Below are positions 6,727 through 63,662 of a DNA stretch of 64,000 bases, in pieces; within the stretch, counting starts at the first letter, position 1, and each line of letters opens with the position of its first letter. The translations under genes and the position numbers were made by a program. The DNA comes from an uncultured Candidatus Saccharibacteria bacterium (GTDB lineage Bacteria; Patescibacteriota; Minisyncoccia; Phycocordibacterales; JACNGX01), in assembly GCA_964621395.1 (NCBI GenBank), contig CAZULS010000002.1, positions 87,306 through 151,305 of the forward strand, in the 5' to 3' direction. The notes under the pieces were generated by a model. That model saw only the letters and a list, made by a program, of their open reading frames with translations, was not told where the DNA came from and made no database searches.

Positions 6727-6727
6727 C

Positions 6728-6816
6728 GGGTACGAAGTACGAATCAATACGAACATACGAAGACAGGGTCTGGAAAAGTAATGTTCGTATGTTCGTACTC
6801 GTTCGTAGTTCGTAAC
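6728..6816. repeat. A-family palindromic element, second copy
   Basis: Differs from 6275..6362 by one substitution. It fills the sufU-sufC spacer. Confidence 0.7.
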
Positions 6817-6819
6817 TAT

Positions 6820-15672: not shown

Positions 15673-15723
15673 AAAACCGAGGTTAAACCTTGGTATACAT
15701 ACCAAGGTTTAACCTCGGTTTTC
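15672..15723. repeat. Perfect 25 bp inverted repeat GAAAACCGAGGTTAAACCTTGGTAT / ATACCAAGGTTTAACCTCGGTTTTC (family G-like)
   Basis: Directly after the permease stop. A related palindrome GCGCCAAGGTTAAGCTTTGGCA/TGCCAAAGCTTAACCTTGGCGC lies at 15814..15860. Confidence 0.6.
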
Positions 15724-15909
15724 TAAATCACAAATCCCAAGCATCAAATTCCAAATAATATCAAAATTCAAAATATGCAAACCCTACTACTTTCCACTGT
15801 CGAATGTCAAAAGCGCCAAGGTTAAGCTTTGGCAGAATTGCCAAAGCTTAACCTTGGCGCTTAGATTCCCGATCGAGTCGGGAATGACAAAATAGGATAC
15901 ACACAAAAA

Positions 15910-27122: not shown

Positions 27123-27304
27123 CTGTCATCCCGCACTTGATGCGGGATCCAAGCAGACATAATTATGTAGGTAAAACTCTGGATTCCAGGGTCTTGTCAG
27201 GAATGACACATCCTAGGGTTATTCGAAAACCAAGATTGAGTTTTGGTATGAATACCAAAGCTCAACCTTGGTTTTAAGATCCCGCATCAAGTGCGGGATG
27301 ACAG
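27123..27304. repeat. Large B-family element with terminal inverted repeats CTGTCATCCCGCACTTGATGCGGGATC ... GATCCCGCATCAAGTGCGGGATGACAG and internal AAAACCAAG...CCTTGGTTTT palindrome
   Basis: 27 bp TIRs flank ~130 bp. A MITE-like organisation. Confidence 0.65.
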
Positions 27305-29054: not shown

Positions 29055-29070
29055 GAAGAGAAAATTAATT

Positions 29071-29257
29071 AGAGCCTGTTCGTAATCTCATGTCGTGCGT
29101 AATGCATCATATACCGAGCGAAAATCGTGAAAAGTGTTGATGGAGTACTGTCGTACTTCGAGACACTTTAAGCGATTTACAGCCGGTATATGGCGCATTA
29201 AGCCGACAAGGACATGTTCTTCTTCGTTCAATTCCGTTGAGATTATGAACAGGCTCT
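29071..29257. mobile_element. MITE family D copy 1 (~187 bp, 20 bp perfect TIRs AGAGCCTGTTCGTAATCTCA / TGAGATTATGAACAGGCTCT)
   Basis: The internal sequence carries a second inverted repeat TATACCGAGCGAAAATCG / CGATTTACAGCCGGTATA. Tandem copy at 29325..29512, third copy at 58698..58884, degenerate inverted copy at ~49497..49725. Confidence 0.7.
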
Positions 29258-29324
29258 TAGATGACACACTCAGTATATATGAGAATACCGATTGACTGAA
29301 AGTTTTTTTTGTTCTCTGACTTTA

Positions 29325-29512
29325 AGAGCCTGTTCACAATCTCATGTCGTGCGTGACACACTCATATACCGAGCGAAAATCGTGAAAAGTGTCGAAGGAG
29401 TACTGTCGTACTTCGAGACGCTTTGAGCGATTTGCAGCCGGTATATGAGTGTGTCAGCCGGCAAGGATATATCTTTCTTTCTCCTATTCCGTTGAGATTG
29501 TGAACAGGCTCT
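29325..29512. mobile_element. MITE family D copy 2
   Basis: ~85-90% identical to copy 1, with the same TIRs AGAGCCTGTTCACAATCTCA / TGAGATTGTGAACAGGCTCT. Confidence 0.7.
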
Positions 29513-29570
29513 AAGAGGAGAAAAAAGTGAGCGCGGCGGGGCAAAGCCCCGCCGCGCTAAGTGGTAAAAT

Positions 29571-33557: not shown

Positions 33558-34142
33558 TCAAAACGGCAACGTGTAATTCATCGCATTGCGCTCGTTTTCT
33601 CCGCGGCTCTCCCAATCGGATGTGTCGAGAGGGAATTCCTTTGTGGTGCCGAGCTCGGTGTATTTGAGTGATTTGTTCTCAAGTGCGTATTCATACACCT
33701 CTTTGGTGATACGTACATCTTCTTCGCAGTACTGCCTGATTTTTTCAATTTCACCGTCTTTCCACCACTGAATCGCTTCAAGGCCATGACCGATTTTGTT
33801 TTTTCCGAGTGTGCCTTCGGCAATAGCATCAAGACGAATGCGTTTACCAAGCGATTCTTTTATCTCCACAAGAAGATCAAGTGACGGGATAGCCGTAAGA
33901 TCACCCGGATAATATTTATTGAGAAGGGGAATATCGAAGTGGTCGGAGTTGTATCCAATAAGAAGTGATGTCTCTTCAAGTGTTTTCCAGAGCTTAGGGA
34001 GTTCGTCTTCAGTGTAGCTCGTGTATGCATCGGTGTCGTAATCGTAGATGACGAGGAGAGAGATGGAGAGTGCCGCCGGGTCATTTGAGCCAACGCTTTG
34101 AAACGTGTTTTGTGTCTCAATGTCGAAAACAATTTTTTTCAT
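33558..34142 (-). CDS. RNase H-like 3'-5' exonuclease (PolB-exonuclease-like DEDD family)
   Basis: MKKIVFDIETQN Exo I motif, then YNSDHFDIPLL and the YCEEDVRIT Exo III-like motif. The longer ORF N-terminus only translates the A repeat. Confidence 0.6.
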   Translation of the reverse strand: MKKIVFDIETQNTFQSVGSNDPAALSISLLVIYDYDTDAYTSYTEDELPKLWKTLEETSLLIGYNSDHFDIPLLNKYYPGDLTAIPSLDLLVEIKESLGKRIRLDAIAEGTLGKNKIGHGLEAIQWWKDGEIEKIRQYCEEDVRITKEVYEYALENKSLKYTELGTTKEFPLDTSDWESRGENERNAMNYTLPF

Positions 34143-34161
34143 TGCATTATGATACCATATC

Positions 34162-34272
34162 GGGTACAAAGTACGAATATATACGAACATACGAAGATAG
34201 GGTTGTTTCGGAAAATGAATTGCAGGGTATACATTGTGTTCGTATGTTCGTACTCGTTCGTAGTTCGTAACC
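34162..34272. repeat. A-family element (GGGTACAAAGTACGAATATATACGAACATACGAAG ... TTCGTATGTTCGTACTCGTTCGTAGTTCGTAACC)
   Basis: Same architecture as 6275..6362, with a longer central spacer. Nearly identical to 36041..36152. Confidence 0.65.
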
Positions 34273-34291
34273 TGTGATATACTAATACCTA

Positions 34292-35287
34292 ATGACACTA
34301 CTCATCGCTGCAATCATTTTTATTGTCTCGCTCGCCGTTTTGGTCAAAGGGTCCGACTGGCTTCTTTCCGGCGCCGAAAAGGTCGGCCTCTCGCTCGGCC
34401 TCTCGCCATTTGTTATCGGTGTGATTTTGGTTGGCGTGGGTACTTCTTTTCCTGAACTTATGTCGGGCTTGGCGGGTGTGTTCTCGGGTATTCCGGAAAT
34501 CGTGGTGGCAAATGCCACAGGGTCAAATATTGCCAATATTCTTCTCGTTGTGGGAACGATTACGGTTATTGCACGGCACATTGAAATCGTTCGCGATCTC
34601 ATAGCTCTCGAATTGCCGCTCCTTGCTCTCTCCACGTTTCTCTTTCTCGGTAGTGTGTACGACGGAGAAATAACACTCGTTGAAGCTATTATCCTGTGTG
34701 TAGCATATGGCGTGTATATGGTGTACTCGCTTTCTTCCGGAGAAGCCGGGGCGAGTATTGCGGCTGTGGAGAAGACAGCCGAGCTCAAAGAGAAAGTGGA
34801 AGAGAAGGAAACCGGATTTTCACAGTTTATGAACGGTCTCTATTCACTGAAGGACTACGGTCTGTTGCTTCTTGGTGCAGTTGCTGTGTATTTCGGCGCA
34901 TCGTATTTAGTTGATTCTGTTATTGCGCTTTCTGCCATACTCAATATCGCGCCGGGTATTATTTCCATGTCGGCGATTGCACTCGGCACATCACTTCCGG
35001 AACTCATTGTCTCAGCACGTGCGATTACCCTCGGAAAGACAGAAGTTGCAATCGGCGGTATTCTCGGTTCCAATGCATTCAACGCGCTTATGGTGGTGGG
35101 TATCCCGGGACTTTTTACAGCACTTCCCGTGGGTGAACAAACGCTCATTGTCGGTGTCCCTGCTATGGCATTAGTAACGCTCATCTTTATTATCTCCACA
35201 GTCTCAAGGAGACTCTATCACTGGGAAGGTATGATGTTTCTTCTTGCGTATGTCTTTTTCGTACTGAAACTTTTTGCAGTGATTTAA
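34292..35287 (+). CDS. Ca2+/Na+ antiporter, CaCA family (YrbG-like)
   Basis: Two alpha-repeats GTSFPELMSG and GTSLPELIVS. About 10 TM helices. Confidence 0.8.
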   Translation: MTLLIAAIIFIVSLAVLVKGSDWLLSGAEKVGLSLGLSPFVIGVILVGVGTSFPELMSGLAGVFSGIPEIVVANATGSNIANILLVVGTITVIARHIEIVRDLIALELPLLALSTFLFLGSVYDGEITLVEAIILCVAYGVYMVYSLSSGEAGASIAAVEKTAELKEKVEEKETGFSQFMNGLYSLKDYGLLLLGAVAVYFGASYLVDSVIALSAILNIAPGIISMSAIALGTSLPELIVSARAITLGKTEVAIGGILGSNAFNALMVVGIPGLFTALPVGEQTLIVGVPAMALVTLIFIISTVSRRLYHWEGMMFLLAYVFFVLKLFAVI

Positions 35288-36040: not shown

Positions 36041-36152
36041 GGGGTACGAAGTACGAACGTGTACGAACATACGAAGATTGAGTTGTTTCGGAAAATGAAT
36101 TGCAGGGTATACATTGTGTTCGTATGTTCGTATTTATTCGTAGTTCGTAATA
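36041..36152. repeat. A-family element, near-duplicate of 34162..34272
   Basis: GGGGGTACGAAGTACGAACGTGTACGAACATACGAAG...TTCGTATGTTCGTATTTATTCGTAGTTCGTAATAACC. Confidence 0.65.
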
Positions 36153-36155
36153 ACC

Positions 36156-47112: not shown

Positions 47113-47278
47113 GGTATCATCTTTATTTTTGTTTAACCCAAAACACTATGTTTCGAGCAAAATACTGCTGATTACATATTATGGAATATATTGTTTTTGT
47201 CAAGCCCGCTTCGCTAAAGCTCTGCAGGGAGGGATGCGGACTATGATTCTTGTTTCGTAATTCTTCATTCTTGATTCT

Positions 47279-47354
47279 GAAAGAAATAATGCAAGCGCAG
47301 ATGTGATTTTTGCAATGTTGCAAAAATCACATCTGCGCTTGCATTATTTCTTTC
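47279..47354. promoter_or_regulatory. Perfect 37 bp inverted repeat (76 bp palindrome) GAAAGAAATAATGCAAGCGCAGATGTGATTTTTGCAA / TTGCAAAAATCACATCTGCGCTTGCATTATTTCTTTC, overlapping the infA promoter
   Basis: The right arm contains the -35 TTGCAT (47339..47344), followed by N16 and TATGAT (47361..47366), with the infA ATG at 47381. It lies in the divergent region between the 47112 and 47381 gene starts. Confidence 0.55.
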
Positions 47355-47380
47355 ATGTGCTATGATATGCGCCAATCGTA

Positions 47381-47785: not shown

Positions 47786-48163
47786 ATGCGAATCGCAGGT
47801 ATTACCATTCCAGAAGACAAGCGTATCGAAATCGGACTCACCGCTGTATATGGTGTCGGTCGTTCTCTTGCGCACGATATTCTCGACGAAGCAAAAGTTG
47901 AGTATGGTGCAAAGCCGAAAGATCTTTCCGAAGCACAGCAGTCAGCTATTCGCGATATTGTGACGGCACTAACCATCGAAGGTGATCTCAAGCGGGAAAC
48001 GGCGTCGAATGTAAAGCGCTTGAAGGATATCCAGTGTTATCGCGGTTCACGCCACGGACAGGGTTTACCGACTCGCGGTCAGCGCACAAAGACGAATGCC
48101 CGCACACGTAAAGGTCCGCGCAAGACGATGGGTTCCGGTAAGAAAAAGGTTGAGAAGAAGTAA
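47786..48163 (+). CDS. rpsM: 30S ribosomal protein S13
   Basis: MRIAGITIPEDKRIEIGLTAVYGVGR. Preceded by the TTCTAACTCCTAATTTCTAACTTCTAAACT (family J) array. Confidence 0.9.
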   Translation: MRIAGITIPEDKRIEIGLTAVYGVGRSLAHDILDEAKVEYGAKPKDLSEAQQSAIRDIVTALTIEGDLKRETASNVKRLKDIQCYRGSRHGQGLPTRGQRTKTNARTRKGPRKTMGSGKKKVEKK

Positions 48164-48190
48164 TATTCATGCTAGCATATTGGCTTGTAT

Positions 48191-48392
48191 AGTAAGAATC
48201 TTTCTTAGTAAAAATGGCTTGTTATCGCGCCCGACATGTGAGCGAGACGACGATGCGGAGTGTAAGGTATATAGACATATGACGCACGCGAGCATCAAGT
48301 CGCAGCCACATGTCGGGCGCGAGAACTGCCAAGCAACAGCTTTTGCGTTTATTATTTTTTATTTTGCGGTTTTTACTAAGATAGATTCTTGA
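48191..48392. repeat. Family E ~200 nt long-hairpin element, copy 1 (outer arms AGTAAGAATCTTTCTTAGTAAAA / TTTTACTAAGATAGATTCTTGA; inner perfect stem GCGCCCGACATGTG / CACATGTCGGGCGC)
   Basis: It occupies almost the whole rpsM-rpsK spacer. The core AATGGCTTGTTNTCGCGCCC is shared with copy 2. Confidence 0.6.
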
Positions 48393-48396
48393 TCCT

Positions 48397-48831
48397 ATGG
48401 GAAAAAAACGTGTCGCACAAAAGAAGGGAGGTACTGTTGACGCTGGGCTCCGCGCCCGCGCTCTTTCACGTGCGCCAAAGAAAAAGGTTGCCTCCGGTAT
48501 TCTCTGTGTGGAAGCAACATACAACAACACTCGCTTGACCCTCACTGATAAGGCGGGAAAAGTCTTGGCATGGAGCTCTTCCGGTGCCCTTGGATTCAAT
48601 GGTGCCAAAAAGGGAACACCGTTTGCCGCGGCAAAGATTGGTGAAGTGATCGCCGAGAAAGCGCTTATGATGGGTATGAAGGATGTATCGGTTGTGGTGA
48701 AAGGTGTTGGCATGGGACGTGAATCAGGCATTCGAGCATTTGCCGGAAAAGGTATCGACATCACAGCAATTTCCGATCGCACACCGGTACCGCATAATGG
48801 CCCGACACCGCGTAAGCCTCGTCGTGTATAA
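48397..48831 (+). CDS. rpsK: 30S ribosomal protein S11
   Basis: GILCVEATYNNTRLTLTD...GFNGAKKGTPFAA. Confidence 0.9.
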   Translation: MGKKRVAQKKGGTVDAGLRARALSRAPKKKVASGILCVEATYNNTRLTLTDKAGKVLAWSSSGALGFNGAKKGTPFAAAKIGEVIAEKALMMGMKDVSVVVKGVGMGRESGIRAFAGKGIDITAISDRTPVPHNGPTPRKPRRV

Positions 48832-48854
48832 TCCAGTATTTCAATTTCAGTATT

Positions 48855-49487
48855 ATGATGACCAATAGCAAATGTAAAATCTGTCGCCGTGCCGGTGAGA
48901 AGCTCTTCCTGAAAGGGGAGAAGTGTTTGACTGCAAAATGTACGCTTGTGAAAAAGCCGTATACTCCCGGACTGGCACAATCACAGCGTAAGCACCGCTC
49001 GATGGTGACTGAATTCGGTCGCCAGCTTAAAGATAAGCAGAAGGTGCGCAATATGTATGGCATGCGCGAGCGTCAGTTTGTGAATTATGTGCGCGAAGCA
49101 ATGAAGAAAGCGGGTAGTCCTGCAGAGAATCTTTTCGTGCTCCTTGAATCACGCGTGGACAATGTGGTCTTCCGCAGTGGCTTTGCCAATTCACGCTCAC
49201 TTGCTCGTCAGATGGTATCGCACGGACACATTACCGTAAATGGTCGCAAGATTGATATTCCATCATACACAATGAAGAAAGGGGATGTTATCGGTGTGCG
49301 CGAAGGAAGTATGAAGAGCCCGCTCTTTACCGATCTCGGGAAGAAGCTTGAGAAGCATTCTGCGCCGGTATGGGTGAAGCTTGACCCGAAGAAGGTACAC
49401 GCTGAGGTGATTGGCGCTCCGAAACTTGAAGAAGCGACGGATGCGGGTATTGATTTGCCGACAGTGATCGGGTTCTACAGTCGATAA
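48855..49487 (+). CDS. rpsD: 30S ribosomal protein S4
   Basis: N-terminal zinc-finger-like region CKICRRAGEKLFLKGEKC and an S4 domain. Confidence 0.9.
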   Translation: MMTNSKCKICRRAGEKLFLKGEKCLTAKCTLVKKPYTPGLAQSQRKHRSMVTEFGRQLKDKQKVRNMYGMRERQFVNYVREAMKKAGSPAENLFVLLESRVDNVVFRSGFANSRSLARQMVSHGHITVNGRKIDIPSYTMKKGDVIGVREGSMKSPLFTDLGKKLEKHSAPVWVKLDPKKVHAEVIGAPKLEEATDAGIDLPTVIGFYSR

Positions 49488-49496
49488 GCTATCCAC

Positions 49497-49725
49497 AGAG
49501 CCTGAAAAAGTGTTGCCTTTTCGAGAGTTTTGTGTTACACTTAGAATCTAATCAAGATTTCAACGCAAGAGGATAAAAATCCATGTTGCTTGCCGGCTGA
49601 AATGCCCATATCCCGGCTGCAAATCGTTCAAAGCGTCTCGAAGTACGACAGTACTCCTTCAACACTTTTCACGATTTTCGCTCGAGATATGAGCATTTCA
49701 CGCTCGACATGAAATCTTGCTCAGA
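49497..49725. mobile_element. Degenerate, inverted copy of MITE family D
   Basis: CCGGCTGCAAATCGTTCAAAGCGTCTCGAAGTACGACAGTACTCCTTCAACACTTTTCACGATTTTCGCTCG is the reverse complement of the family-D core. The termini are eroded. Confidence 0.5.
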
Positions 49726-49771
49726 TCCTTGTGTACGCGAAACGTAATCGCTGTTTTTCGTTTTATTCAAA

Positions 49772-49964
49772 GAACCGGTCTCACTGAAAATGGCTTGTTC
49801 TCGCGCCCACACTGCGAGCGAACCGACGTCGCGGAGACCATAACGTACTGTTTGTACGTTATGGTTGAGCGACAAGGTGCAGCCGCAGTGTGGGCGCGAG
49901 AACGGCGCATGCGCAGCTCCGGAATAAAATCTTCTTGTTTGAAGGTTTTCAGTGAGATTGGTTC
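49772..49964. repeat. Family E long-hairpin element, copy 2 (outer arms GAACCGGTCTCACTGAAAA / TTTTCAGTGAGATTGGTTC; inner stem CTCGCGCCCACACTGCG / CGCAGTGTGGGCGCGAG)
   Basis: The arms differ from copy 1 but remain perfectly self-complementary, i.e. compensatory change. It lies in the rpsD-rpoA spacer. Confidence 0.6.
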
Positions 49965-50044
49965 TATAAGTCGTTCAACCGACCGACACACATTTCTGTG
50001 TCGGTCGCGGTGGCGTATTTTATTATATTTTAAGCCCCATTTTT

Positions 50045-51013
50045 ATGCTAGATCACAGCGTCGTCCTCCCTTCCTCCCCACGTGTCGTATCCGAAGATGC
50101 GACAAAAGGCATCTATGAGATTGATGGTCTCTACACCGGATACGGACACACTCTCGGAAATTCGCTTCGTCGAATTATTCTTTCTTCGCTTCCCGGTTTT
50201 GCTATTACGTCGGTGAAAATCGCCGGTGTTCCGCATGAATTTTCCACCATTGATGGCGTCAAAGAAGACGTGATTGCATTGTTGCTCAATCTCAAAAAAG
50301 TACGATTGGCATTTGATGGAAGTGAATCACAGACATTTACCTGCACCCTGAAGGGTCCGAAGCCGGTAACAGCCGGCGATTTGAGCGTGCCGTCTCAGGT
50401 GCGTGTACTCAATCCCGAGCAGCACATTGCCGAGCTGACCGCTAAGGGTTCGTCTCTTGAAATTGAAATCACCGTGGAGAAAGGGCTCGGCTATGTTGCC
50501 AAAGAAGTGCATGCCGGCGGGAAGAACGATGTGGGTGTGATTGCGCTTGATGCAACGTTCACTCCGATTCGCCGTGCCAACTACGAAGTGGAAAACATGC
50601 GTGTTGGTGATCGTACCGATTACAATCGTTTGCGCATGGTGATTGAAACAGACGGCACACTCACACCGCGCGAAGCACTCGAGCGTTCCATTGTGGTGAT
50701 GATTGAGCAATTGAAAGCGATTGTTGGCTTCCAGGAAGAGGAACCGGAGGAAGAAGTTGCTGATGCACCGGAAGAGGGAGCTGAGGAAGAAAAAGGCGAG
50801 ACCGATGCAGATGCTTTGAAAACGCGCATCGAGTCTCTCGAAGAGCTTTCCAGCCGTACATCCAATGCGCTGCTGGAGGCAAGTATTCGCACCGTGGGCG
50901 GACTTGTGCGCAAGAGTGAAGAAGACCTTCTTGCTCTTGAGGGCGTGGGAGATAAGAGTGTGCAGGAAATTCGTCGCGCACTCGCAAACTTCGGCTTGAC
51001 TCTGAAGCAATAA
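50045..51013 (+). CDS. rpoA: DNA-directed RNA polymerase subunit alpha
   Basis: N-terminal dimerisation domain, acidic linker and C-terminal helix-hairpin-helix (LEELSSRTSNALLEASIRTVGGL). Confidence 0.9.
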   Translation: MLDHSVVLPSSPRVVSEDATKGIYEIDGLYTGYGHTLGNSLRRIILSSLPGFAITSVKIAGVPHEFSTIDGVKEDVIALLLNLKKVRLAFDGSESQTFTCTLKGPKPVTAGDLSVPSQVRVLNPEQHIAELTAKGSSLEIEITVEKGLGYVAKEVHAGGKNDVGVIALDATFTPIRRANYEVENMRVGDRTDYNRLRMVIETDGTLTPREALERSIVVMIEQLKAIVGFQEEEPEEEVADAPEEGAEEEKGETDADALKTRIESLEELSSRTSNALLEASIRTVGGLVRKSEEDLLALEGVGDKSVQEIRRALANFGLTLKQ

Positions 51014-51023
51014 TCCGTATACT

Positions 51024-51218
51024 GGAACCCACCTCATATTAAAACGCCAGAGAAAGGACTCACGCACTTCGTGCAACGGCTTGACAGTTCTCGCACCACA
51101 TATTCGGCTGCACCTTGTCTCTCAACCGCACCGCACGAGTAGTGCGGCACGGTCTCCGAGACATCTACGCTGCGAATATGTGACACGAGAACAAGTCATT
51201 TAATATGAGGCGGGTTCC
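51024..51218. repeat. Family F ~195 nt long-hairpin element, copy 1 (outer arms GGAACCCACCTCATATTAAA / TTTAATATGAGGCGGGTTCC)
   Basis: It fills the rpoA-rplQ spacer. Internal CACATATTCGGCTGCA...CCGCACGAGTAGTGCGG...GAATATGTG. The homolog is at 57418..57600. Confidence 0.6.
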
Positions 51219-51236
51219 GGAGCCTATTCCTAATGT

Positions 51237-51587
51237 ATGAAACATCACAGCAAACATCGAACACTTGGACGCGATAATGATCAGCGTAAAGCACTTTTGA
51301 AAGGCTTGGCTGTGTCTCTTGTGCGTGATGAAAAGATTATGACTACGGAAGCAAAGGCAAAGGAGCTCCGTCCGTTTATCGAAAAGCTCATTACACGTGC
51401 ATCAAAGGGAGATGTGGCTGCACGTCGTTTGCTCGTGTCACGCGTTGGCTCTGAGATTACTGCAGAGAAGCTCATGAAGGAGATTGCTCCGCGCTACGAA
51501 AACCGCGCCGGTGGATACACCCGTATTACCAAGATTGCTCCACGCAGCGGTGACGCAAGTCCGATGGCTGTTATTGAATTTGTATAA
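51237..51587 (+). CDS. rplQ: 50S ribosomal protein L17
   Basis: [24 protein letters not shown]. Confidence 0.9.
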
Positions 51588-51589
51588 TT

Positions 51590-51934
51590 ATGGAATACAC
51601 ACTTGATGCACAAGAAAAGAGCGTAGGACGTGTTGCAACCGAAGCGGCTATGGCGCTTATGGGAAAGAACACGTCGAGTTATAAGCCGAATGTTGCTCCG
51701 GATGTATCTGTGCGTATCGTGAATGCCTCAAAGGCGAATATCTCCGAGAAGAAGAAGGGAGAGAAGACATACGAGCGCTATTCCGGATATCCGGGAGGTC
51801 TCAAGTCTGCCACAATGGGAGAGGTGATTGAGAAGAAAGGATACGGAGAAATCTTCCGCATGGCGGTAAAAGGCATGCTTCCGAAGAATAAGCTCCAGGC
51901 GGTGATGATGAAGAATCTCACGGTTGAAGAGTAG
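51590..51934 (+). CDS. rplM: 50S ribosomal protein L13
   Basis: GRVATEAAMALMGK...YERYSGYPGGLK...AVKGMLPKN. Confidence 0.85.
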   Translation: MEYTLDAQEKSVGRVATEAAMALMGKNTSSYKPNVAPDVSVRIVNASKANISEKKKGEKTYERYSGYPGGLKSATMGEVIEKKGYGEIFRMAVKGMLPKNKLQAVMMKNLTVEE

Positions 51935-51939
51935 TCAAC

Positions 51940-51975
51940 GGGTACGAAGTACGAACCAATACGAACATACGAATA
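51940..51975. repeat. A-family left half-element GGGTACGAAGTACGAACCAATACGAACATACGAATAC (solo)
   Basis: Immediately after the rplM stop. There is no matching right arm. Confidence 0.55.
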
Positions 51976-52074
51976 CAGTGTTTAAGAAGTATTCACGTGT
52001 ATCGTTTTTCATACCACAGACGACAGCAATAGTTTCAGTTTAACGTCTATAGTTTATCGTTTTTATTTACTTTC

Positions 52075-52485
52075 ATGTCAGCAACTACAAGCAAAAATAC
52101 CTATATCGAAGCAGTGGGACGTCGAAAAACGGCAGTGGCACGCGTGCGTATCACTGAAAGTGCAAAGCCGTCGTTTACGGTCAACGGTCGTGAGCTCGCT
52201 GAATATTTCCCAACAGACGCTTTGAAGAAGATTGCTCAAGAGGCGATTGCAACATCCGGTCTTGCAACCAAGTTTGCCGTATCGGCGAAGGTGGTGGGAA
52301 GCGGCATTCACGCCCAGGCTGAGGCGGTGCGCCATGGACTCTCTCGTGCGCTTGTGAAGGTGGATGCTGAAACTCGTAAAGAGCTCAAACCGGCAGGATT
52401 TCTCAAGCGTGACCCGCGAAGTGTGGAACGAAAGAAATTCGGTCTCAAGAAAGCCCGCCGCGCATCACAGTGGTCTAAACGCTAA
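52075..52485 (+). CDS. rpsI: 30S ribosomal protein S9
   Basis: C-terminal GLKKARRASQWSKR. Preceded by the AGTTTATCGTTTTTATTTACTTTC motif. Confidence 0.9.
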   Translation: MSATTSKNTYIEAVGRRKTAVARVRITESAKPSFTVNGRELAEYFPTDALKKIAQEAIATSGLATKFAVSAKVVGSGIHAQAEAVRHGLSRALVKVDAETRKELKPAGFLKRDPRSVERKKFGLKKARRASQWSKR

Positions 52486-52592
52486 GCAAAGCTTAGCGTC
52501 GACCGAACATCCGGAGGATGTTTTAGGTCTAAACGCTAATATACATACTCAAACCAAAACCGCTCGCAGGGGCGGTTTTGCTGTATACAAAA

Positions 52593-52630
52593 ACGGGCGA
52601 AACAGCAGAGCTGTTTCGCCCGTTTTGGCA
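52593..52630 (+). terminator. Intrinsic terminator AACGGGCGAAACAGC-AGA-GCTGTTTCGCCCGTTTTGG
   Basis: 15 bp perfect stem followed by a T-run. It closes the r-protein operon. Confidence 0.7.
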
Positions 52631-52734
52631 CACACCCAGCTCCCCAAAAGCACCAACGTTGGGACAACGTTGTCCCAACGTTACCTATTTCTGATGAGGT
52701 TTTTGATGGGCAGGATGTGATATACTTTCAGTAT

Positions 52735-52893
52735 ATGAAACATGTGCGAAAAATTATAAAGAATGGGGCCGGCTCATACTATGTAAATGTGCCCAAGAAA
52801 GTGGTGAAGGAGCTTCGCTTGAAGGAGCGACAAAAGGTGACGGTGCGCGCTTCCGGCGCAAAAATTGTAATTGAGGACTGGAAAGAGAAGTAA
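52735..52893 (+). CDS. AbrB/MazE/SpoVT-family small DNA-binding protein (52 aa; below the ORF-track length cutoff)
   Basis: MKHVRKIIKNGAGSYYVNVPKKVVKELRLKERQKVTVRASGAKIVIEDWKEK is a swapped-hairpin AbrB-like motif. It has its own upstream TATACT box and downstream terminator. Confidence 0.55.
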   Translation: MKHVRKIIKNGAGSYYVNVPKKVVKELRLKERQKVTVRASGAKIVIEDWKEK

Positions 52894-52895
52894 AG

Positions 52896-52935
52896 AAAGC
52901 AGTGCGGGCATTTCATGCCCGCACTGCTTTTGTGT
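52896..52935 (+). terminator. Intrinsic terminator AGCAGTGCGGGCAT-TTC-ATGCCCGCACTGCTTTTGTG
   Basis: 14 bp perfect stem followed by a T-run. Confidence 0.7.
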
Positions 52936-53141
52936 GATAAAATATAGTCGATGGATATTGAGGATTTCAATACTTGCACCAATATATAATTTTAGATATA
53001 GTAATAATACCATCCACAACCAACCTTACCAAATGCATAAAATATATCCTGCCATTCAATATAACAAAAGCACCAATTATTCTATATGAGCAGTTTAAAA
53101 GACAGTTTAGTGAGGTTAGTTAGGATTGGTATAATATGGTT

Positions 53142-53327
53142 ATGAAGAACACACGCACCAAAACTAATTCAGGTCAATTCACCGCTAAGCGCTTTGACAC
53201 AAAGATGTCGACTATCGAAAAGACGTATAATGTTGATCTCGGCGTTCGTGGTGATATGAAGTTAGGGAATTATCTTAAGGAAAAAGGATATCCCTCCCTT
53301 TCAAAGATGTTAAAAGATGCATCGTGA
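53142..53327 (+). CDS. hypothetical small protein (61-63 aa), first gene of an AT-rich two-gene module
   Basis: TATAAT at 53130..53135 puts the transcription start at or next to the ATG, i.e. a leaderless mRNA. Basic, and the C-terminus may be helix-turn-helix-like. Its last 11 nt overlap the start of the next gene. Confidence 0.4.
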   Translation: MKNTRTKTNSGQFTAKRFDTKMSTIEKTYNVDLGVRGDMKLGNYLKEKGYPSLSKMLKDAS

Positions 53328-53886
53328 TTTGAATATGGCTGGATCAAATTTTCCTTTTATTCCAAAGAGTGTCTTACGGAAGAATCTCGATGAATCGTTT
53401 GAACATATACTGACACTACTCCCGTTTACCGAGTCAAAGAGCTATAATGAGGCTGCAAAGAGCGCTTTTCGTAAGACGATTATTATTTACACCGCATCGA
53501 TTGTCGAAGCGCTTGTTTTTTATGTGATTGATACAGAATTCTCTGACGATGACGTTAGAGAGTATTACAGTACATGGGAGTTAAAAGATAAGAAGATGCT
53601 CCATGTTCTCGACAGTGAACGTAAGATTGTTGCTGGAACATACTGTAGAGTTTTGGCAAAGTCCGGGAAAGGTAAGATGAATCTTGGACAGATTATTCGA
53701 TTTTTGAAGGACAAGGAAATTCTCGACGAGGATTTATATAAGAAAGTCGATCAGATTCGTGTTTTCCGTAATGAACAGCATATTGGAACACACAGCAATG
53801 TTCCGATATATGGAAAGAAAAAGTTAGAAAAAGCTTTCTCAATTGCAAAAGATGTGAAAGAGTTCGTGAGAGAAAGATATGAGTAA
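53317..53886 (+). CDS. hypothetical all-alpha protein, possibly HEPN-like (Rx6H motif RVFRNEQH)
   Basis: 189 aa, AT-rich, translationally coupled to the upstream small ORF (ATGCATCGTGA overlap). I recognise no family. The HEPN assignment is speculative. Confidence 0.4.
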   Translation: MHRDLNMAGSNFPFIPKSVLRKNLDESFEHILTLLPFTESKSYNEAAKSAFRKTIIIYTASIVEALVFYVIDTEFSDDDVREYYSTWELKDKKMLHVLDSERKIVAGTYCRVLAKSGKGKMNLGQIIRFLKDKEILDEDLYKKVDQIRVFRNEQHIGTHSNVPIYGKKKLEKAFSIAKDVKEFVRERYE

Positions 53887-53965
53887 CATATTTTTGTCTC
53901 CCCGGAAAATAACATTCCAGATCAAAAATTGACAAAGAAGATTTTTGGGTTACAATGGTTTCGCT

Positions 53966-54586
53966 ATGGATACTCATGATAACATCAACGACGATATGAA
54001 TGACGAGGTGGACGTTTCTTCTGTACCTGAAGAGAGTGCGGATGACGTTGTGTTTGAGGAAGAGGGCCTAAACGCCGACGAGTCGGCATCGGCCGAGCTT
54101 CGCAATGACCCCGCGGCGATGAAGCGTTTGCGTGAGAAGCTGAAGGTGGCGGTGAAGGAGAAGCAGGAATATCTCGATGGCTGGCAACGCGCGAAGGCTG
54201 ATTTGGTGAATGTGAAACGTGAACATGAGGATACTCGTGTGCGCATGATGCATATGGGAAAGAGCGCGATGATTGAGGATCTTCTCTCTGTGGCAGACAG
54301 CTTTGATATGGCATTTGGGAATGAGGAAGCTTGGGAGAAGGTGGACAGAGGGTGGCGTACCGGTGTGGAATATATTTACGCGCAGTTTAAGCGCGTGCTC
54401 GATGACCACGGTATTGAAATCATTGATCCAGAGGGTGAGGATTTCGATCCGGAAAAGCATGAAGCGGTGGAGATGGTATCGGTTGAAGAAGAGAGCGAAA
54501 AAGGAAAAGTCCAAAACGTGCTTTCTAAGGGATATTTCTTTGATGGTAAAGTCCTTCGCGCTGCGCGCGTGAAGGTGGGGGAGTGA
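53966..54586 (+). CDS. grpE: nucleotide exchange factor GrpE
   Basis: Acidic N-terminus, coiled coil and C-terminal beta domain (FDPEKHEAVEMV...GKVLRAARVKV). The ORF track begins 7 codons earlier at a TTG. Confidence 0.85.
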   Translation: MDTHDNINDDMNDEVDVSSVPEESADDVVFEEEGLNADESASAELRNDPAAMKRLREKLKVAVKEKQEYLDGWQRAKADLVNVKREHEDTRVRMMHMGKSAMIEDLLSVADSFDMAFGNEEAWEKVDRGWRTGVEYIYAQFKRVLDDHGIEIIDPEGEDFDPEKHEAVEMVSVEEESEKGKVQNVLSKGYFFDGKVLRAARVKVGE

Positions 54587-54827
54587 TGAGGGGTCGTCTG
54601 CCCGCGCGTGCACTGCGTATTCCATGCGCAGTGCACGCGCGGGCAAGTGATTGGATTTGAAACGAGACTTGCCAAGACCCAGCCCCACACCAATGATTTT
54701 GAGAGCTTATATTCTTGCCAGTACCGTTATGTTGCTGAGGAGAATGTTCTCTTTATGAAATCAAAAGTGTGGGGCTGGGTGACAACTTCTTTTTATCGTT
54801 AACAGTTAATCGTTTATTGTTACACTT

Positions 54828-56756
54828 ATGTCTAAAATTCTAGGAATCGATTTAGGAACAACAAACTCTGCCATGGCTATCGTGGAGGGTGGTGAGCCGC
54901 GCATTATTGAAAATGCCGAAGGTGCACGCACGACACCGTCTATTATCGCAAAAGCGAAAAACAACGAACGCACAGCGGGTATGGCGGCAAAGCGTCAGGC
55001 GGTAACCAATCCGGAAAATACTCTCTTTGGTATCAAGCGTTTGATTGGACACCGCTATGATGATGCGGCCGTGCAGAAAGATAAAGAGATTGTTCCATTT
55101 GCTATCGAAAAATCAGATGGCGAAGGTGTGCAGGTAAAAATGGGTGAGGACACGTATCGTCCGGAAGAAATTTCGGCTATGGTTCTCGGTAAGCTAAAGA
55201 GCGATGCCGAAGCAAAGCTCGGTGAGACGATTACTGAGGCGGTGATTACCGTGCCGGCATACTTCAACGATGCGCAGCGTAAGGCTACCAAAGACGCCGG
55301 AGCGATTGCCGGTTTCGATGTAAAGCGCATCATCAATGAACCGACAGCGGCAGCGCTTGCGTATGGTTTCAATAAGAAGAAAGACGAGCAGATTGCCGTA
55401 TACGACTTTGGTGGCGGTACATTCGACATCTCCATTCTTGAGGTTGGCGATGATGTGATTGAAGTAAAATCAACAGACGGCGACGCGCACATGGGCGGTG
55501 AGGATATCGATCAGAAAATCGTGAATTGGCTCGGTGAAGAGTTTAAAAAAGATCAGGGAGTGGATATTCTCAAAGACGTGCTTGCTTTGCAGCGTTTGAA
55601 AGAGGCGGCGGAGAAAGCAAAGCACGAACTCTCCACCACAATGGAAACAGAAGTGAATATTCCGTTTATTACCTCTGATGCATCGGGGCCGAAGCATTTG
55701 CTTCTCAAAATGAGTCGCGCGAAGCTCGAAGAGCTCGCTGCAGAATATATTGATCGCTCGATTGAGATTACGAAGCGTGCTGTGGAAGCATCCGGCTTTT
55801 CCGTGAGCGATATCGATGAAGTGATCTTGGTGGGTGGACAAACACGCATGCCGGCAATCACGAATGCCGTGAAAGAGCTTTTCGGTAAGGAGCCGAATAA
55901 ATCAATCAATCCGGATGAAGTGGTGGCGCTTGGTGCCGCTATTCAGGCGGGGATCTTGCAGGGTGATGTGAAGGATGTGCTTCTTCTTGATGTGACGCCG
56001 CTTTCCTTTGGTATTGAAACCATGGGAGGAATTGCGACAAAGCTTATTGAGAAGAACACCACCATTCCGGCGAATAAGTCGCAGGTCTTTTCGACGGCTG
56101 CTGACAATCAGCCGTCGGTTGAGATTCATGTGGTGCAAGGGGAGCGTCCGATGTCTGCTGACAACCGTTCACTTGGCCGCTTTGTGCTCGACGGTATTCC
56201 GCCGGCGCCGAGAGGTGTGCCGCAGATTGAGGTGTCGTTTGATATCGATGCCAATGGAATTTTGAATGTGAAGGCGGTGGATAAGGCAACGAACAAAGAG
56301 CAGTCGATTCACATTGAGGCGACATCAGGCATCTCTGATGAGGATATTGAAAAGATGAAGGCTGATGCTGAGAAACACGCCGATGAAGACAAGAAGCGCA
56401 GAGAAGCGGTGGAGACGAAGAACACCGCCGAGCAACTTGCCTACGGTGCCGAGAAGGCGCTCAAGGACAATGCTGATAAGATTACGGATGAGATTAAAAC
56501 AAATGTGGAAGAGAAGGTAAAAGCACTTCGCGAAAAGCTCGCGGGGGACGACACGGAGGCAATCACGAAAGCATCCGAAGAACTCTCAACGGCAATGCAA
56601 ACGATTGGCGAGCATATCGCCAAAGAGGGGCAGAATGCGCAAGCTGAAGGGACTCCCGGTGCGGAAGGAGCGAACGAGACTCCCAATGAGGATGATGTCC
56701 GCGATGCGGAATTTGAGGAGAAGAAAGAAGAAGGAGAAGAAGGAAAAGACAAATAA
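54828..56756 (+). CDS. dnaK: molecular chaperone DnaK (Hsp70)
   Basis: [16 protein letters not shown] and [11 protein letters not shown] motifs. 642 aa. Preceded by the TTTATCGTTAACAGTTAATCGTTTATTGTTACACTT motif. Confidence 0.95.
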
Positions 56757-56813
56757 CAAATTCCAAATCACACATAATATCAAAATTTCAAAAATAAAAT
56801 AAAAAAGAAAAAA

Positions 56814-56851
56814 CAAAAAAGCGCGCGACCCTTCGGGTCGCGCGCTTTTTT
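56814..56851 (+). terminator. Intrinsic terminator AAAAAAGCGCGCGACCC-TTC-GGGTCGCGCGCTTTTTT
   Basis: Perfect GC-rich stem followed by T6. Confidence 0.75.
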
Positions 56852-56868
56852 ACATATTCATCTCAAGG

Positions 56869-57093
56869 TGTCATCCCGCACTTGATGCGGGATCTCGAGA
56901 GAGTTGTTTCTTGACGTTTAGATCCAGCCCCACTTTCACTGATTAGTTTATATGGCTATTTTAAGATAGACGAAGTTTCTAACTTGCTTTAAAGAATAAT
57001 TTAATCAGTGAAAGTGGGGCTGGATGACAGCAAAAGAGAATAGCGAAGCAAAAGTCCTATTCGTATGTCCGTACATCTTCGTACTTCGTACCC
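56869..57093. repeat. B-family element (GTGTCATCCCGCACTTGATGCGGGATC ... CAGTGAAAGTGGGGCTGGATGACAGC) followed by A-family right half TTCGTATGTCCGTACATCTTCGTACTTCGTACCC
   Basis: The same B + A-right arrangement precedes trpS (62141..62277) and aspS (63488..63602). Confidence 0.6.
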
Positions 57094-57155
57094 CTTTTTG
57101 TATTTCAGGAAAAATATGATATGCTCATGCCAGAATTTTTTGTAACTTTAGCTTT

Positions 57156-57578
57156 GTGTCCATGCATATTGATTATGTTACGGTGCTGTTCTATTGCTTC
57201 CTCTGGCCCCTCCTCATCGGAGAGCTTTTTCTTTTTACCAGAAAAGATGAGGCTGTGATATGGCGACTTCGTATCGCTCTCGCAATTGTACTCCTCGTAG
57301 GAGTAGTCATGTATTCCTATTTCATGACGCCACCGGATGAGCTGCCGGCTCGTTTTCTTGTATCGCTCTTGGTCTTCACTAAGGGCGTTTTTTTGTGTAT
57401 ACTATGTAGAGCCTCTTTCATATTAAACCGCCAAAATGGTATTTTCACACTTTCGTATGAATGCTTGGCAATTCTCGCACACCATATTCGGCTGCATCTT
57501 GTTGCTCAACAGCACCGCACGAAAGTGCGGCGCAGTCTCCGCAACATCGGTTCGCACGAATATGCTGCACGAGCATAA
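57156..57578 (+). CDS. hypothetical membrane protein (questionable; C-terminal third is translated through family-F repeat)
   Basis: The N-terminal 100 aa are hydrophobic. The last ~50 codons coincide with repeat F copy 2. Confidence 0.3.
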
Positions 57579-57600
57579 GCCATTTAATCTGAAAGAGACT
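57418..57600. repeat. Family F long-hairpin element, copy 2
   Basis: TCATATTAAACCGCC...TTCTCGCACACCATATTCGGCTGCATC...CACCGCACGAAAGTGCGGCG...CGAATATGCTGCACGAGCATAAGCCATTTAATCTG is homologous to 51024..51218. The inner hairpin loop is GAAA here versus GAGTA there. Confidence 0.6.
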
Positions 57601-58677: not shown

Positions 58678-58697
58678 TCGATCAATTTTTCTTTCTT

Positions 58698-58884
58698 AGA
58701 GTCTGTTCACAATCTCATGTCGTGCGTGATATGCCCATATGCCGAGCGAAAATCGTGAAAAACGGTGATGGAGTACTCTCGTACTTTGAGACGTTTTGAG
58801 CGATTTGCAGCCGGTATATGGGCATATCAGCCGACAAGGACAATTTTTATTCATTCAATTCCGTTGAGATTATGAACAGGCTCT
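58698..58884. mobile_element. MITE family D copy 3 (TIRs AGAGTCTGTTCACAATCTCA / TGAGATTATGAACAGGCTCT)
   Basis: ~85% identical to 29071..29257. Its right TIR supplies the in-frame ATG at 58872 upstream of the acyltransferase gene. Confidence 0.7.
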
Positions 58885-58889
58885 TACAT

Positions 58890-60488
58890 ATGAAACAGCG
58901 TCTCAAAGACGTGTGGTGGACCGTTATTCCATGGATACTCCAAACAATCGTGTGGATTCCCGCGCAGATTATTCTGCACTTCTTCCTTCGCCTTCGTGTA
59001 GAAGGATATAAACGGATCAAGCACATTCGCGGACCGGTTATTTTCGTATCCAATCATACAAGCTACTGGGATCCGATTATGATTCCGGCGGCGTTGCCAC
59101 TCTTTTCTCGATTTTTCCCAATGATGTATGTGGCACGTGAGCGCAATTATTACAGACGTGCCAAACACTTTATCGGTGCGACATCGTTTAAGGTATGGGG
59201 GGCGCATCCGGCACACGGCGGACTGTGTGATTATGCTCGCTCACTCGATGACCATGAACGGTTTCTAAACCAAGGAAGAAGTGTGTGCATGTTTCCTGAA
59301 GGGACGCTACCGGAAGAGGAAGACAGCATCCAACCTTTCAAAGGAGGCATTGGCTATTTGGTATGTCATACAAAAGCAACGATTATTCCTGTCTCCATTA
59401 CAGGGATGTTTTCTGTAACAGCAAAAGATTTCTTCAGCAGGAAACGTCGTGCCACACTCACATTCGGCGAGCCGCTTACCAACAACCCGCTCTGCGTCGT
59501 TGCCAAGGGGGAAACACCCGATGTGGAGTGTTACAAAAAAACCGCCGAAAAGATTAGAGAAGAATTAAGCGTTCTTTTTTCAATTGGTTACAATACGATG
59601 CACGATTATCTTCCCGAACAAGAATATCATCATGCTTTCGCTAGACCATTTCGCGCTATTGGTCGTTTTATACTCAATCATTTACATCTTGTTCCGGGTA
59701 TGAATAATATAGCGCGAAAGACAAACAGAGGCGCGCGAGAAGTACTGGAGAACAAAACAACGCACCAGGCCCTGGAAGTGCTGTATCGGAAAGGGGACAC
59801 AGGGAAAAAAGAAACATTTCTGGGAAACATATTTCGTTCACTATGGTTTTTTACCGACAATGCGAAAGGAGTCAGAAACCGTCTTAGAATTGTAAAAAAT
59901 GGAATTGTGAGAGAGCTCGTAAACATTCATAGCGATGAATGTCACAATAATACTGTGCACATGCTCAGTATTGCGTCTGGATCGGCGCGCGCGGTGCTGG
60001 AAGCGATACAGCGAGCAAGAGAAATGAATGTCGAAAAGGACATTCATGTAACCTTTTTAGATAAAAGTCCTCAGGCAATTTCATACAGTCGCACATTGGC
60101 ACAATCGGTATGTGATGAAGATGTTCTCAAAAAAACACACATGCAATGGGTGACTGACACTGCAAGCAATTTTACAAAGTACGCAGATGAGGGGTCTTTA
60201 GATATTATTGAAATGGTCGGCCTGCTTGACTACTTCGATGACGAAAAAGCGCAACGTCTTTTTGAAAAAGCGTACCGCTACTTACGTTCAGGAGGCGTGT
60301 TCATTACTGCCAATATTGACTATAATAAAGAGTATGCATTCGTGAACAACTTTGTCGATTGGCGTATGATATATCGTTCATCGCACGAGTTAGCAGCGTT
60401 AGCGCGTCGTGCTGGCTTTAATGCACAGTACATGCGCGTATATACAGAACCTCTCGGAGTTCACAATGTGCTCATCGTGAGGAAATAA
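58890..60488 (+). CDS. fusion protein: N-terminal 1-acyl-sn-glycerol-3-phosphate acyltransferase-like (PlsC/LPLAT) domain + C-terminal class I SAM-dependent methyltransferase-like domain
   Basis: HxxxxD box NHTSYWD and the FPEGT box in the first ~200 aa. The C-terminal ~200 aa have Rossmann-like methyltransferase motifs (SIASGSARAVLE, FLDKSPQAI, DIIEMVGLLDY, LRSGGVFITAN). Confidence 0.55.
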   Translation: MKQRLKDVWWTVIPWILQTIVWIPAQIILHFFLRLRVEGYKRIKHIRGPVIFVSNHTSYWDPIMIPAALPLFSRFFPMMYVARERNYYRRAKHFIGATSFKVWGAHPAHGGLCDYARSLDDHERFLNQGRSVCMFPEGTLPEEEDSIQPFKGGIGYLVCHTKATIIPVSITGMFSVTAKDFFSRKRRATLTFGEPLTNNPLCVVAKGETPDVECYKKTAEKIREELSVLFSIGYNTMHDYLPEQEYHHAFARPFRAIGRFILNHLHLVPGMNNIARKTNRGAREVLENKTTHQALEVLYRKGDTGKKETFLGNIFRSLWFFTDNAKGVRNRLRIVKNGIVRELVNIHSDECHNNTVHMLSIASGSARAVLEAIQRAREMNVEKDIHVTFLDKSPQAISYSRTLAQSVCDEDVLKKTHMQWVTDTASNFTKYADEGSLDIIEMVGLLDYFDDEKAQRLFEKAYRYLRSGGVFITANIDYNKEYAFVNNFVDWRMIYRSSHELAALARRAGFNAQYMRVYTEPLGVHNVLIVRK

Positions 60489-62140: not shown

Positions 62141-62277
62141 TTGTCATCCCGCACTTGATGCGGGGTCTAAGCGTTACGAAACAACTCTTTCGAGATCCCG
62201 CATCAAGTGCGGGATGACAGGAAAAGAGAGTATTAAGAGCCTGTTCGTATGTTCGTACTGTTTTGTACTTCGTACCC
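62141..62277. repeat. B-family MITE-like element (75 bp, TIRs TGTCATCCCGCACTTGATGCGGGGTCT / AGATCCCGCATCAAGTGCGGGATGACA) + AGAGCCTGTTCG + A-family right half
   Basis: The TTG that starts the predicted trpS ORF lies inside the A repeat. The real start is 62314. Confidence 0.65.
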
Positions 62278-62313
62278 CTCCCGAAAATTGTGTTTTGTGA
62301 TATAGTGGTGTCT

Positions 62314-63309: not shown

Positions 63310-63602
63310 GTTACGAACTACGAATAATGCGAATATACGAATATAGTTTATATCAAGCAATACACGTGTTATCCTGGACTCTTGCCGAGCTCGACTTTCA
63401 CTGAATAAGCAAAAATATCAAAAACGATAGAAGAAAGAATAAAAAGTGTGTCACCAGAAATGCTTGTTGGTGAAAGTGAGGCTCTGGTGATTCAGGATCT
63501 CAAAAAGTGAAGATTCCGCATCAAGTGCGGAATGACAGTAAAGGTGGGTAATGGTATAGAAGATGTCTTCGTATGTTCGTATAACTTCGTACTTCGTACC
63601 CG
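63310..63602. repeat. Composite A-left arm (GTTACGAACTACGAATAATGCGAATATACGAATATAG), truncated B hairpins, A-right arm (TTCGTATGTTCGTATAACTTCGTACTTCGTACCC)
   Basis: It fills the trpS-aspS spacer. Confidence 0.6.
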
Positions 63603-63662
63603 AAGAGAGTTATTGAGCTGCATACATAGTAATATTATTGTTTCGACATCATTTAATTTCCT

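Follow-up and report, generated by a model that had tools for sequence, protein, structure and literature searches.

Palindromic elements beside rplQ and dnaJ in a patescibacterial genome are probable copies of a mobile, MITE-like repeat superfamily

Two strongly palindromic stretches of about 190 nucleotides (nt), one between rpoA and rplQ and the other just upstream of dnaJ, raise the question of whether such elements serve the transcripts of these genes or have simply been inserted beside them. Both lie in a stretch of 64,000 nt (hereafter the window; contig CAZULS010000002.1, positions 87,306 to 151,305, assembly GCA_964621395.1) from an uncultured bacterium deposited as Candidatus Saccharibacteria, whose RpoA shows affinity to Patescibacteria/Paceibacteria (Kaiserbacteria-like) and is 66-67% identical to that of the best species representative. 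A preliminary description had treated the two as a family F, second to another palindromic family E, and had proposed either a regulatory or processing structure or a repeat insertion. The present analysis indicates that they are probably copies of a lineage-restricted, non-autonomous palindromic superfamily of about 185-200 bp that resembles transposable elements of the miniature inverted-repeat class (MITEs) and is mobile. Their location beside dnaJ and rplQ is best interpreted as an accident of insertion and not as the mark of a dedicated regulator.

The homology first described for the two stretches, over about 180 nt, was confirmed. The copy in the rpoA-rplQ spacer (F1, 51024..51218) and the copy before dnaJ (F2) have a mean column identity of 79% in a MAFFT alignment, and each of the conserved blocks CATATTCGGCTGCAYCTTGT and GCACCGCACGA..GTGCGGC occurs twice in the window and in none of 100 shuffles. 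The extent of F2, previously given as 57418-57600, required correction, the paired ends being 57408 and 57602. Both copies are of the F type and lie on the minus strand: F1 is antisense to rpoA (stop 51013) and to rplQ (ATG 51237), whose start is 17 nt downstream, and F2 is antisense as well, its end lying 4 nt before the true dnaJ ATG at 57607. On the plus strand, where the conserved apical stem CCGCAC/GTGCGG and its GAGTA and GAAA loops agree with the earlier description, the predicted fold reaches -92 kcal/mol in F1 (z = -8.6 against shuffles) and -68.8 kcal/mol in F2 (z = -6.5). The minus strand is more stable in both (-108 and -93.8 kcal/mol), and the earlier emphasis on a GNRA tetraloop applies only to the less stable strand, on which GNRA apical loops do recur in six of the nine copies aligned below. 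The long, imperfect hairpins were upheld, but not as simple ones, the fold being a three-way junction that bears a one-sided branch.

Repeat finding revealed further relatives, in inverted orientation, in the same ribosomal-protein operon as F1. Two are F-related and sense, namely G1 (49771..49965, plus strand) in the rpsD-rpoA spacer and G2 (48194..48390, plus strand) between rpsM (stop 48163) and rpsK (ATG 48397). A covariance model, R1, was built from F1, F2, G1 and G2 only, all oriented alike and with no E copies; 37 of the 70 pairs in its consensus fold are kept paired via changes on both sides, and it scores the four copies at 192.8, 208, 213 and 209 bits, respectively. With this model all four E-type copies were retrieved over their entire length, each on a single strand, at 67-83 bits (E 1e-19 to 1e-24); their reverse strands reached at most 25 bits, and no score above 33 bits was given to reverse strands and generic hairpins taken together. 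They are E1 (58698..58884, plus strand; match 58690-58891, 73.7 bits), between dnaJ (stop 58677) and an acyltransferase gene with a probable ATG at 58890; E2 (29071..29257, plus strand; match 29063-29264, 67.8 bits), antisense in the spacer of the minus-strand genes hisS and lepB; E3 (29325..29512, plus strand; match 29317-29519, 83 bits), 67 nt downstream of E2; and E4 (49543..49729, minus strand; match 49536-49737, 67.5 bits), antisense in the rpsD-rpoA spacer. The view of F as a second family was therefore abandoned: E and F form one superfamily in opposite orientations, with at least eight copies in the window. Each strand holds four of these, and relative to the neighbouring genes three copies are in sense and five in antisense orientation. 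According to Pfam matches, the copies fall into three neighbourhoods, which read rpsM-[G2]-rpsK-rpsD-[E4][G1]-rpoA-[F1]-rplQ-rplM-rpsI, grpE-dnaK-...-[F2]-dnaJ-[E1]-acyltransferase/methyltransferase and, on the minus strand, hisS-[E2][E3]-lepB.

Contigs of close relatives, with RpoA identities of 97, 96, 92, 88, 78 and 75%, were compared with the window, as were 80 orthologous loci (918 kb). No copy was found in the 80 loci, nor in the 78% and 75% relatives (32 kb). In about 79 relatives the rpoA-rplQ, rpsM-rpsK and rpsD-rpoA spacers have medians of 10, 31.5 and 48 nt, compared with 223, 233 and 557 nt in the window, where spacers without an element are of ordinary length (23 and 2 nt); the dnaK-dnaJ spacer, with a median of about 50 nt in the 50 of 80 related loci in which these genes are adjacent, measures 850 nt. 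The same three ribosomal spacers are 46-70, 68-80 and 167-228 nt long in the four relatives of 88-97% (L091, at 97%; L089, at 92%; L093 and L095), and alignments show F1, G2, E4, G1 and E1 as clean gaps between conserved flanks in relatives of this range. G1 is missing from all four, G2 is missing from four close relatives, and E1 is missing from L089, where dnaJ is separated from the next gene by 23 nt. F1 has no counterpart in the 96-97% relatives, whose spacer there differs altogether. The comparison of orthologous positions, at which absence had been named as refuting in the preliminary description, thus spoke against a dedicated regulatory or processing structure in the dnaK-dnaJ or rpoA-rplQ transcript and largely refuted a locus-specific function, leaving the homology of the two copies untouched.

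Copies do occur at other positions. L089 carries an F-type copy at 15581-15794, directly after the dnaK stop, and an E-type copy at 105-307. Orthology of the former with F2 was judged unlikely, as it follows the dnaK stop upstream of a terminator with 72% identity, whereas F2 abuts dnaJ. An unrelated metagenome contig, L085, has an F-type copy at 1025-1234 (172 bits), between rplY and an open reading frame (ORF) with no Pfam match, and the element is the only part of this contig that aligns with the window. Empty orthologous sites together with copies elsewhere in L089 and L085 indicate mobility on the timescale of species divergence. Multiple dispersed copies in both orientations, at sites filled in one relative and empty in another, are among the hallmarks of MITEs (PMC10969869), as is the small size, the element being non-coding and 185-200 bp long (<500 bp). 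Carriage by phage received no support from three scans of viral collections.

Some further observations concern these spacers. At the F1 site of L089 (10972-11029) only the outer arms of the terminal stem, GGAACCCACCTC and GAGGTGGGTTCC, are present around an unrelated 18-nt loop, with the same right flank CCTATTCCTAATG as in the window; this may have arisen from the element by deletion or may be a shorter sister of it. An AT-rich side branch of G2 resembles the native spacer of relatives and was treated as a low-complexity coincidence. In the few distant relatives whose ribosomal-operon spacers are long, there are palindromic inserts with strong folds (z -3 to -7) but no sequence relation to the element (L036:4662-4858, L072:3657-3796, L061:4733-4905, L015:4616-4755 and L081:5118-5306), of which those in L015, L036 and L081 have a common 3' motif, GGGTGTAAG...CTAAC.

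The termini and junctions were analysed in 11 copies, comprising the eight of the window, the F-type copies of L085 and L089 and the E-type copy of L089. All 11 have the termini GARYC...GRYTC on an outer stem, P1, of about 20 bp, and 95% of the P1 cells are paired in a nine-copy alignment, a terminal inverted repeat (TIR) such as MITEs possess. Flanks of TTA/TTA were found at E1, E2 and the E-type copy of L089, TAA/TAA at E3 and CAA/TAA, matching at two of three positions, at E4 (TTA...TTG on the plus strand). Exact 3-bp flanking repeats are thus present in four of the five E-type copies (p about 5e-7 against intergenic 3-mer frequencies). TA/TA flanks three of the six F- and G-type copies (F2 and the F-type copies of L085 and L089), with p about 2e-6 against intergenic dinucleotide frequencies in a test chosen post hoc. 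The E4 site in L091 reads CAC-TCG-TGTA; in the window the element and 3 further nt are added to it, and the flanks of E4 agree with the empty site in length. The insertion point of E4 is also the exact centre of a native palindrome with 13-bp arms, TTTCGTGTTACAC-TC-GTGTAACACGAAA, which is intact in L091 (about 2035-2065); around E4 (49525-49545 and 49728-49750) its right arm has since decayed.

The duplications suggest that copies would be moved by a trans-acting DDE-type transposase that duplicates a TA or TWA target. Presumably this would be an IS5- or IS630-like enzyme, although none was found. GAG-type termini with TNA or TWA targets are also characters of the IS1031 and IS427 groups or of Tourist-like elements, which the element may match in these respects. 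A cognate autonomous insertion sequence (IS) with the same termini was not found in the window, L085 or the 100 loci.

The fold was examined in the nine-copy, model-guided alignment. Standard pairs make up 95% of pair cells, compared with 33-41% when partners are slid, and 56 of the 70 pairs show changes on both sides; the observed values were reached by none of 500 shuffles. As a single strand, the whole element would fold into the outer stem P1, a second stem of about 25 bp (P2-P3), an asymmetric loop, an apical hairpin and a side branch. The junction beyond P1 has a near-constant A-U-G and CAAG, the helix with a bulged A and 2x3 internal loop is nearly invariant (5' CG-A-GC-GA / 3' GCA-GCCG), the apical hairpin (P4-P5) is variable, and the variable branch, of 35-45 nt, is one-sided; no subfamily lacks the bulged A, the internal loop or this branch. 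Substitutions track pairing and not codons. A small peptide from the shared AUG was ruled out by a 1-nt indel after this AUG in E2 and by ACG or CUG in its place in the L089 copies. A kink-turn reading of the internal loop was rejected by inspection, since the G·A positions are not preceded on their 5' side by a 3-nt bulge. Nor does the element belong to a known RNA family: Rfam 15 gave only two tRNAs at gathering scores over the window, and no match at E<=10 over 48100-51300, which contains four copies.

The fold appears to be tied to one strand. Over the 11 copies, G·U exceeds A·C by 63 to 18 cells and by 31 to 16 columns (19 to 3 in P1), and the G·U states are common to several copies, those of A·C being mostly private. 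When folding energies are computed without the model, RNA parameters favour the model strand in 10 of 11 copies, by 8-33 kcal/mol, and DNA parameters favour it in all 11. A dependence of this asymmetry on host-gene orientation was not significant (p=0.11) and was dropped. Because both orientations are present, a replication- or transcription-linked mutation bias does not explain the strand-specific G·U excess. We infer from these sequence patterns that selection acting on one strand in particular maintains the fold; RNA would be the simplest form in which it does so, and a single-stranded DNA (ssDNA) intermediate is the main alternative.

Several observations weigh against a MITE-like mobile element. 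Target duplications are not recognisable at F1, G1 and G2, and the data had already been seen when the TA/TA test was picked. No transposase, integrase, reverse transcriptase (RT) or HUH enzyme was found among the ORFs of the window or L085, and no longer element bounded by an E-type terminus in the 100 loci. Within the element, variation is greatest in the outer stem, whereas in classical MITEs the TIRs are the best-conserved part, and copies that differ by 10-40% with dense compensation are unlike a recent burst. A cut-and-paste DNA mechanism does not itself account for the strand-specific G·U excess. The strand argument has its own weaknesses, as the G·U and A·C cells are phylogenetically dependent, the private changes are nearly balanced (10 G·U and 7 A·C columns), and the recurrent GNRA loops suggest that the complementary strand may matter too. 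Finally, the pairing statistics come from an alignment fitted to the model, although the effect far exceeds that bias.

As an alternative, each copy might be a gene for a small RNA (sRNA), the element strand being transcribed independently as an RNA of about 190 nt that acts in trans, for instance as a protein scaffold or decoy through its internal loop, with mobility secondary. The G·U excess holds regardless of host-gene orientation, compensation is dense even among copies 85-90% identical, the unpaired nucleotides are nearly invariant (AGCGA / GCAGCC, and CAAG at the junction), and such an RNA, having no Rfam match, would be new. However, no promoter is common to the 5' flanks, which for F1 and F2 consist of rplQ and dnaJ coding sequence in antisense; the G·U bias peaks in the outer stem, so that the transcript would need to start outside the element; and both the empty orthologous sites in 97% relatives and the existence of target duplications fit poorly with sRNA genes, which appear unlikely. 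An element moved as ssDNA, such as a relative of REPINs and their RAYT transposases, an IS200/IS605 derivative or an attC-like site, would need its fold on one DNA strand during transposition. The asymmetry is seen with DNA energies in every copy and follows the element's own frame rather than that of the host, and compensatory changes across the hairpin, in ssDNA or mRNA, are known from REPINs (PMC3116915). Yet the element is five to ten times the length of a repetitive extragenic palindromic (REP) sequence and is paired along its whole length, with no separate hairpins at its ends, and neither RAYT nor TnpA was found among the ORFs of the window and L085. Moreover, flanking duplications are not expected from Y1/HUH transposition of the IS200/IS605 kind, and the TTA/TAA and TA duplications are present. 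Movement as ssDNA is consequently held to be very unlikely.

Long palindromes are also known to be homogenised by template switching or hairpin-directed repair, and such quasipalindrome correction could keep the arms of functionless DNA palindromes complementary. The homogenised arms would mimic compensatory changes, and the unrelated palindromic inserts in the same spacers of a few relatives would be in keeping with this. Correction should, however, erase asymmetries, which persist in all subfamilies as the bulged A, the 2x3 loop and the one-sided branch, and it predicts equal numbers of G·T and A·C, not the 63 to 18 observed; this explanation is considered highly improbable. A cis-acting RNA specific to each locus, for regulation or processing of the rpoA-rplQ and dnaK-dnaJ transcripts, was the idea put first in the preliminary description and gains some plausibility from the placing of F1 and F2, 17 and 4 nt before start codons and directly after TATACT -10-like boxes, and from the mRNA-sense strand, which also folds stably and has a GNRA loop in F2. 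Nevertheless, this is the less stable strand in both F1 and F2, the same sites are empty in the 96-97% RpoA relatives and in 80 other genomes, and the element is found at unrelated loci in both orientations, which leaves such a function scarcely credible. A mobile, MITE-like superfamily accordingly remains the preferred reading.

Among known systems, the Correia elements (CREE/NEMIS) of Neisseria offer close parallels by way of their length of 100-200 bp, lack of coding capacity, TIRs, many copies and TA-containing intergenic targets, often upstream of genes. Correia elements are co-transcribed and form a long hairpin whose paired TIRs are cleaved by RNase III (PMC10969869, PMC2649163). No homology to Correia was seen, no direct alignment aimed at it having been made. 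Compared by description, the element of the window differs in its host, a bacterium of the candidate phyla radiation (CPR), in its terminal stem being the most variable part, in its three-way junction with an invariant loop and in the strand-specific G·U excess. ERIC/IRU elements of enterobacteria and Yersinia are likewise imperfect palindromes (ERIC about 127 bp), intergenic and transcribed, and their effect on mRNA decay depends on the insertion context (PMC10969869). Their length and architecture differ, again by description; homology to ERIC was likewise not seen, with no direct alignment made to seek it, and ERIC is often conserved between species, whereas the present element is polymorphic at 92-97% RpoA identity. 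REPINs share the whole-element hairpin, compensatory changes, non-autonomy and persistence in a lineage (PMC3116915), but they are shorter and consist of a pair of conserved REP 16-mers, have a RAYT gene nearby and are presumed to move without target duplications, in contrast to the TTA/TAA/TA repeats seen here. With its length of about 195 bp, end-to-end pairing and duplications, and with no Y1/HUH protein among the ORFs of the window and L085, the element does not qualify as a REP-RAYT system.

The short flanking repeats recall the IS5 family (IS427/IS1031) or Tourist/PIF-like MITEs, IS5-family groups producing target duplications of 2-4 bp (PMC3281130, Table 2), but neither a transposase nor a matching full-length IS was found here. 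An assignment to the IS5 family was not adopted, as only the short duplication length is confirmed from the literature and the match of the termini is tentative. Retron msr-msd loci do not correspond either, there being no RT in the window, eight dispersed copies, and a branch order on the favoured strand that is the reverse of the retron's. An operon leader, whether of the ribosomal-protein type or a dnaK-dnaJ regulator, is contradicted by the lack of conservation at the orthologous position in relatives.

The insertions nevertheless may have consequences for the genes around them. If co-transcribed with rpoA-rplQ or dnaJ, either strand of the element would form a duplex of more than 40 bp. 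By analogy with Correia and ERIC, such a duplex near a start codon might act as an RNase III-type processing site or as a stabilising or occluding hairpin, as a by-product of insertion. A native promoter-like site, TTGACT-16-TATACT (50996..51023, plus strand; 10/12 consensus match), lies in the last codons of rpoA; it might serve rplQ as an internal promoter, and F1 follows immediately on its -10 box. Up to GTATACT the sequence does not vary among five genomes, whether or not they carry the element; GTATAC, which precedes both F1 and F2, was rejected as part of the repeat for F1, being native and conserved in element-free relatives. F2 begins 4 nt after another TATACT (57398-57403). Promoter- and terminator-like matches in the region occur at the level of shuffles.

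Annotation and assembly are affected as well. The proposal that a repeat insertion had created a spurious ORF extension was supported: the plus-strand ORF at 57156..57578 does overlap F2 just 5' of dnaJ, as had been pointed out, and its last approximately 57 codons read through the element. It has no Pfam match, and the search for its orthologs in other genomes, also suggested earlier, gave no tblastn homolog in 80 related loci, so that, given the insertion pattern too, it is probably spurious or at least spuriously extended. The mechanical ORF list places the dnaJ ATG at 57436 (true start 57607) and the acyltransferase ATG at 58818, inside E1 (probable start 58890), and gene callers put small minus-strand ORFs over the element in L089 (15598-15849) and over the spacer in L091 (2009-2170). 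Four Logan contigs of SRR8146440 (L001, L096, L097 and L098), 100% identical to the window and from the same strain, end at or inside repeat elements; the start of L001 falls within F1, and L096 extends from close to the end of E1 as far as a TGTCAT element, in which it stops. Such elements therefore break short-read assemblies and generate spurious ORFs and wrong start codons.

Several other repeats were noted in the window, about 20.6% of which lies outside the chosen ORFs, seemingly a high proportion for a CPR genome, and several repeat families crowd this intergenic DNA. A second MITE-like family has inverted termini, TGTCATCCCGCACTTGATGCGGGATC ... GATCCCGCATCAAGTGCGGGATGACA, each a hairpin, bounding 80-190 nt of variable sequence (27124-27304, 56869-57029 and 62142-62219). 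Solo hairpins of this family occur near 1417, 13536, 13565, 15854, 18291, 19705, 31058, 31127, 38889 and 63502, and their stems covary (CCGGA/TCCGG, CCCGC/GCGGG and CCTGG/CCAGG). 'TACGAA' repeats, GGGTACGAAGTACGAA..ATACGAACATACGAAGA and the inverse, often in inverted pairs about 50 nt apart, are located at 6274-6369, 6727-6822, 34161-34274, 36041-36154, 51939-51981, 57056-57095, 62240-62279 and 63564-63603; a copy at 62236 opens with AGAGCCTGTTCGTA, an 11-mer of the E-type terminus. Amid these repeats, the minus-strand ORF at 33558-34298, with RNase_H_2 / PolB-exonuclease-like domains, is the sole nuclease-like protein of unclear role in the window. Short AT-rich repeats of the AACGATAAACGAT type recur in numerous spacers between genes, frequently a short way upstream of a gene (1518, 2978, 7736, 27049, 27701, 30290, 30979, 52037 and 54790). 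A perfect palindrome with 38-bp arms and a 2-nt spacer (47278-47355) lies just upstream of infA (47381).

Genomes of CPR bacteria, or Patescibacteria, are regarded as small and streamlined. Even so, the best-supported interpretation is that the short spacers of housekeeping operons have recently been colonised in this lineage, with four insertions within 3 kb of the rpsM-rpsK-rpsD-rpoA-rplQ operon and copies within a few nucleotides of start codons. Full-text literature searching brought up no account of MITEs or structured repeats from CPR bacteria. What is new is an element family in a CPR bacterium with no curated RNA match; hairpin-forming MITEs and REPINs were already known. ωRNAs and bridge RNAs bind their mobilising enzymes, and by analogy the present element might be a mobile carrier of a functional RNA, whose conserved three-way junction and invariant bulged-A/GA internal loop would be bound by a protein, conceivably the enzyme that mobilises the element, an idea that we regard as distinctly unlikely. 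Were it true, the strand-specific fold would be selected for the part that the RNA, or a copy in single-stranded form, plays in propagation, and CPR bacteria would possess an RNA-assisted non-autonomous element of a new kind. The combination of polymorphic insertion, dense compensation and G·U excess makes the present superfamily a good test case for the selection of mobile hairpin repeats as RNA, a question that ERIC and REPIN-type elements pose as well.

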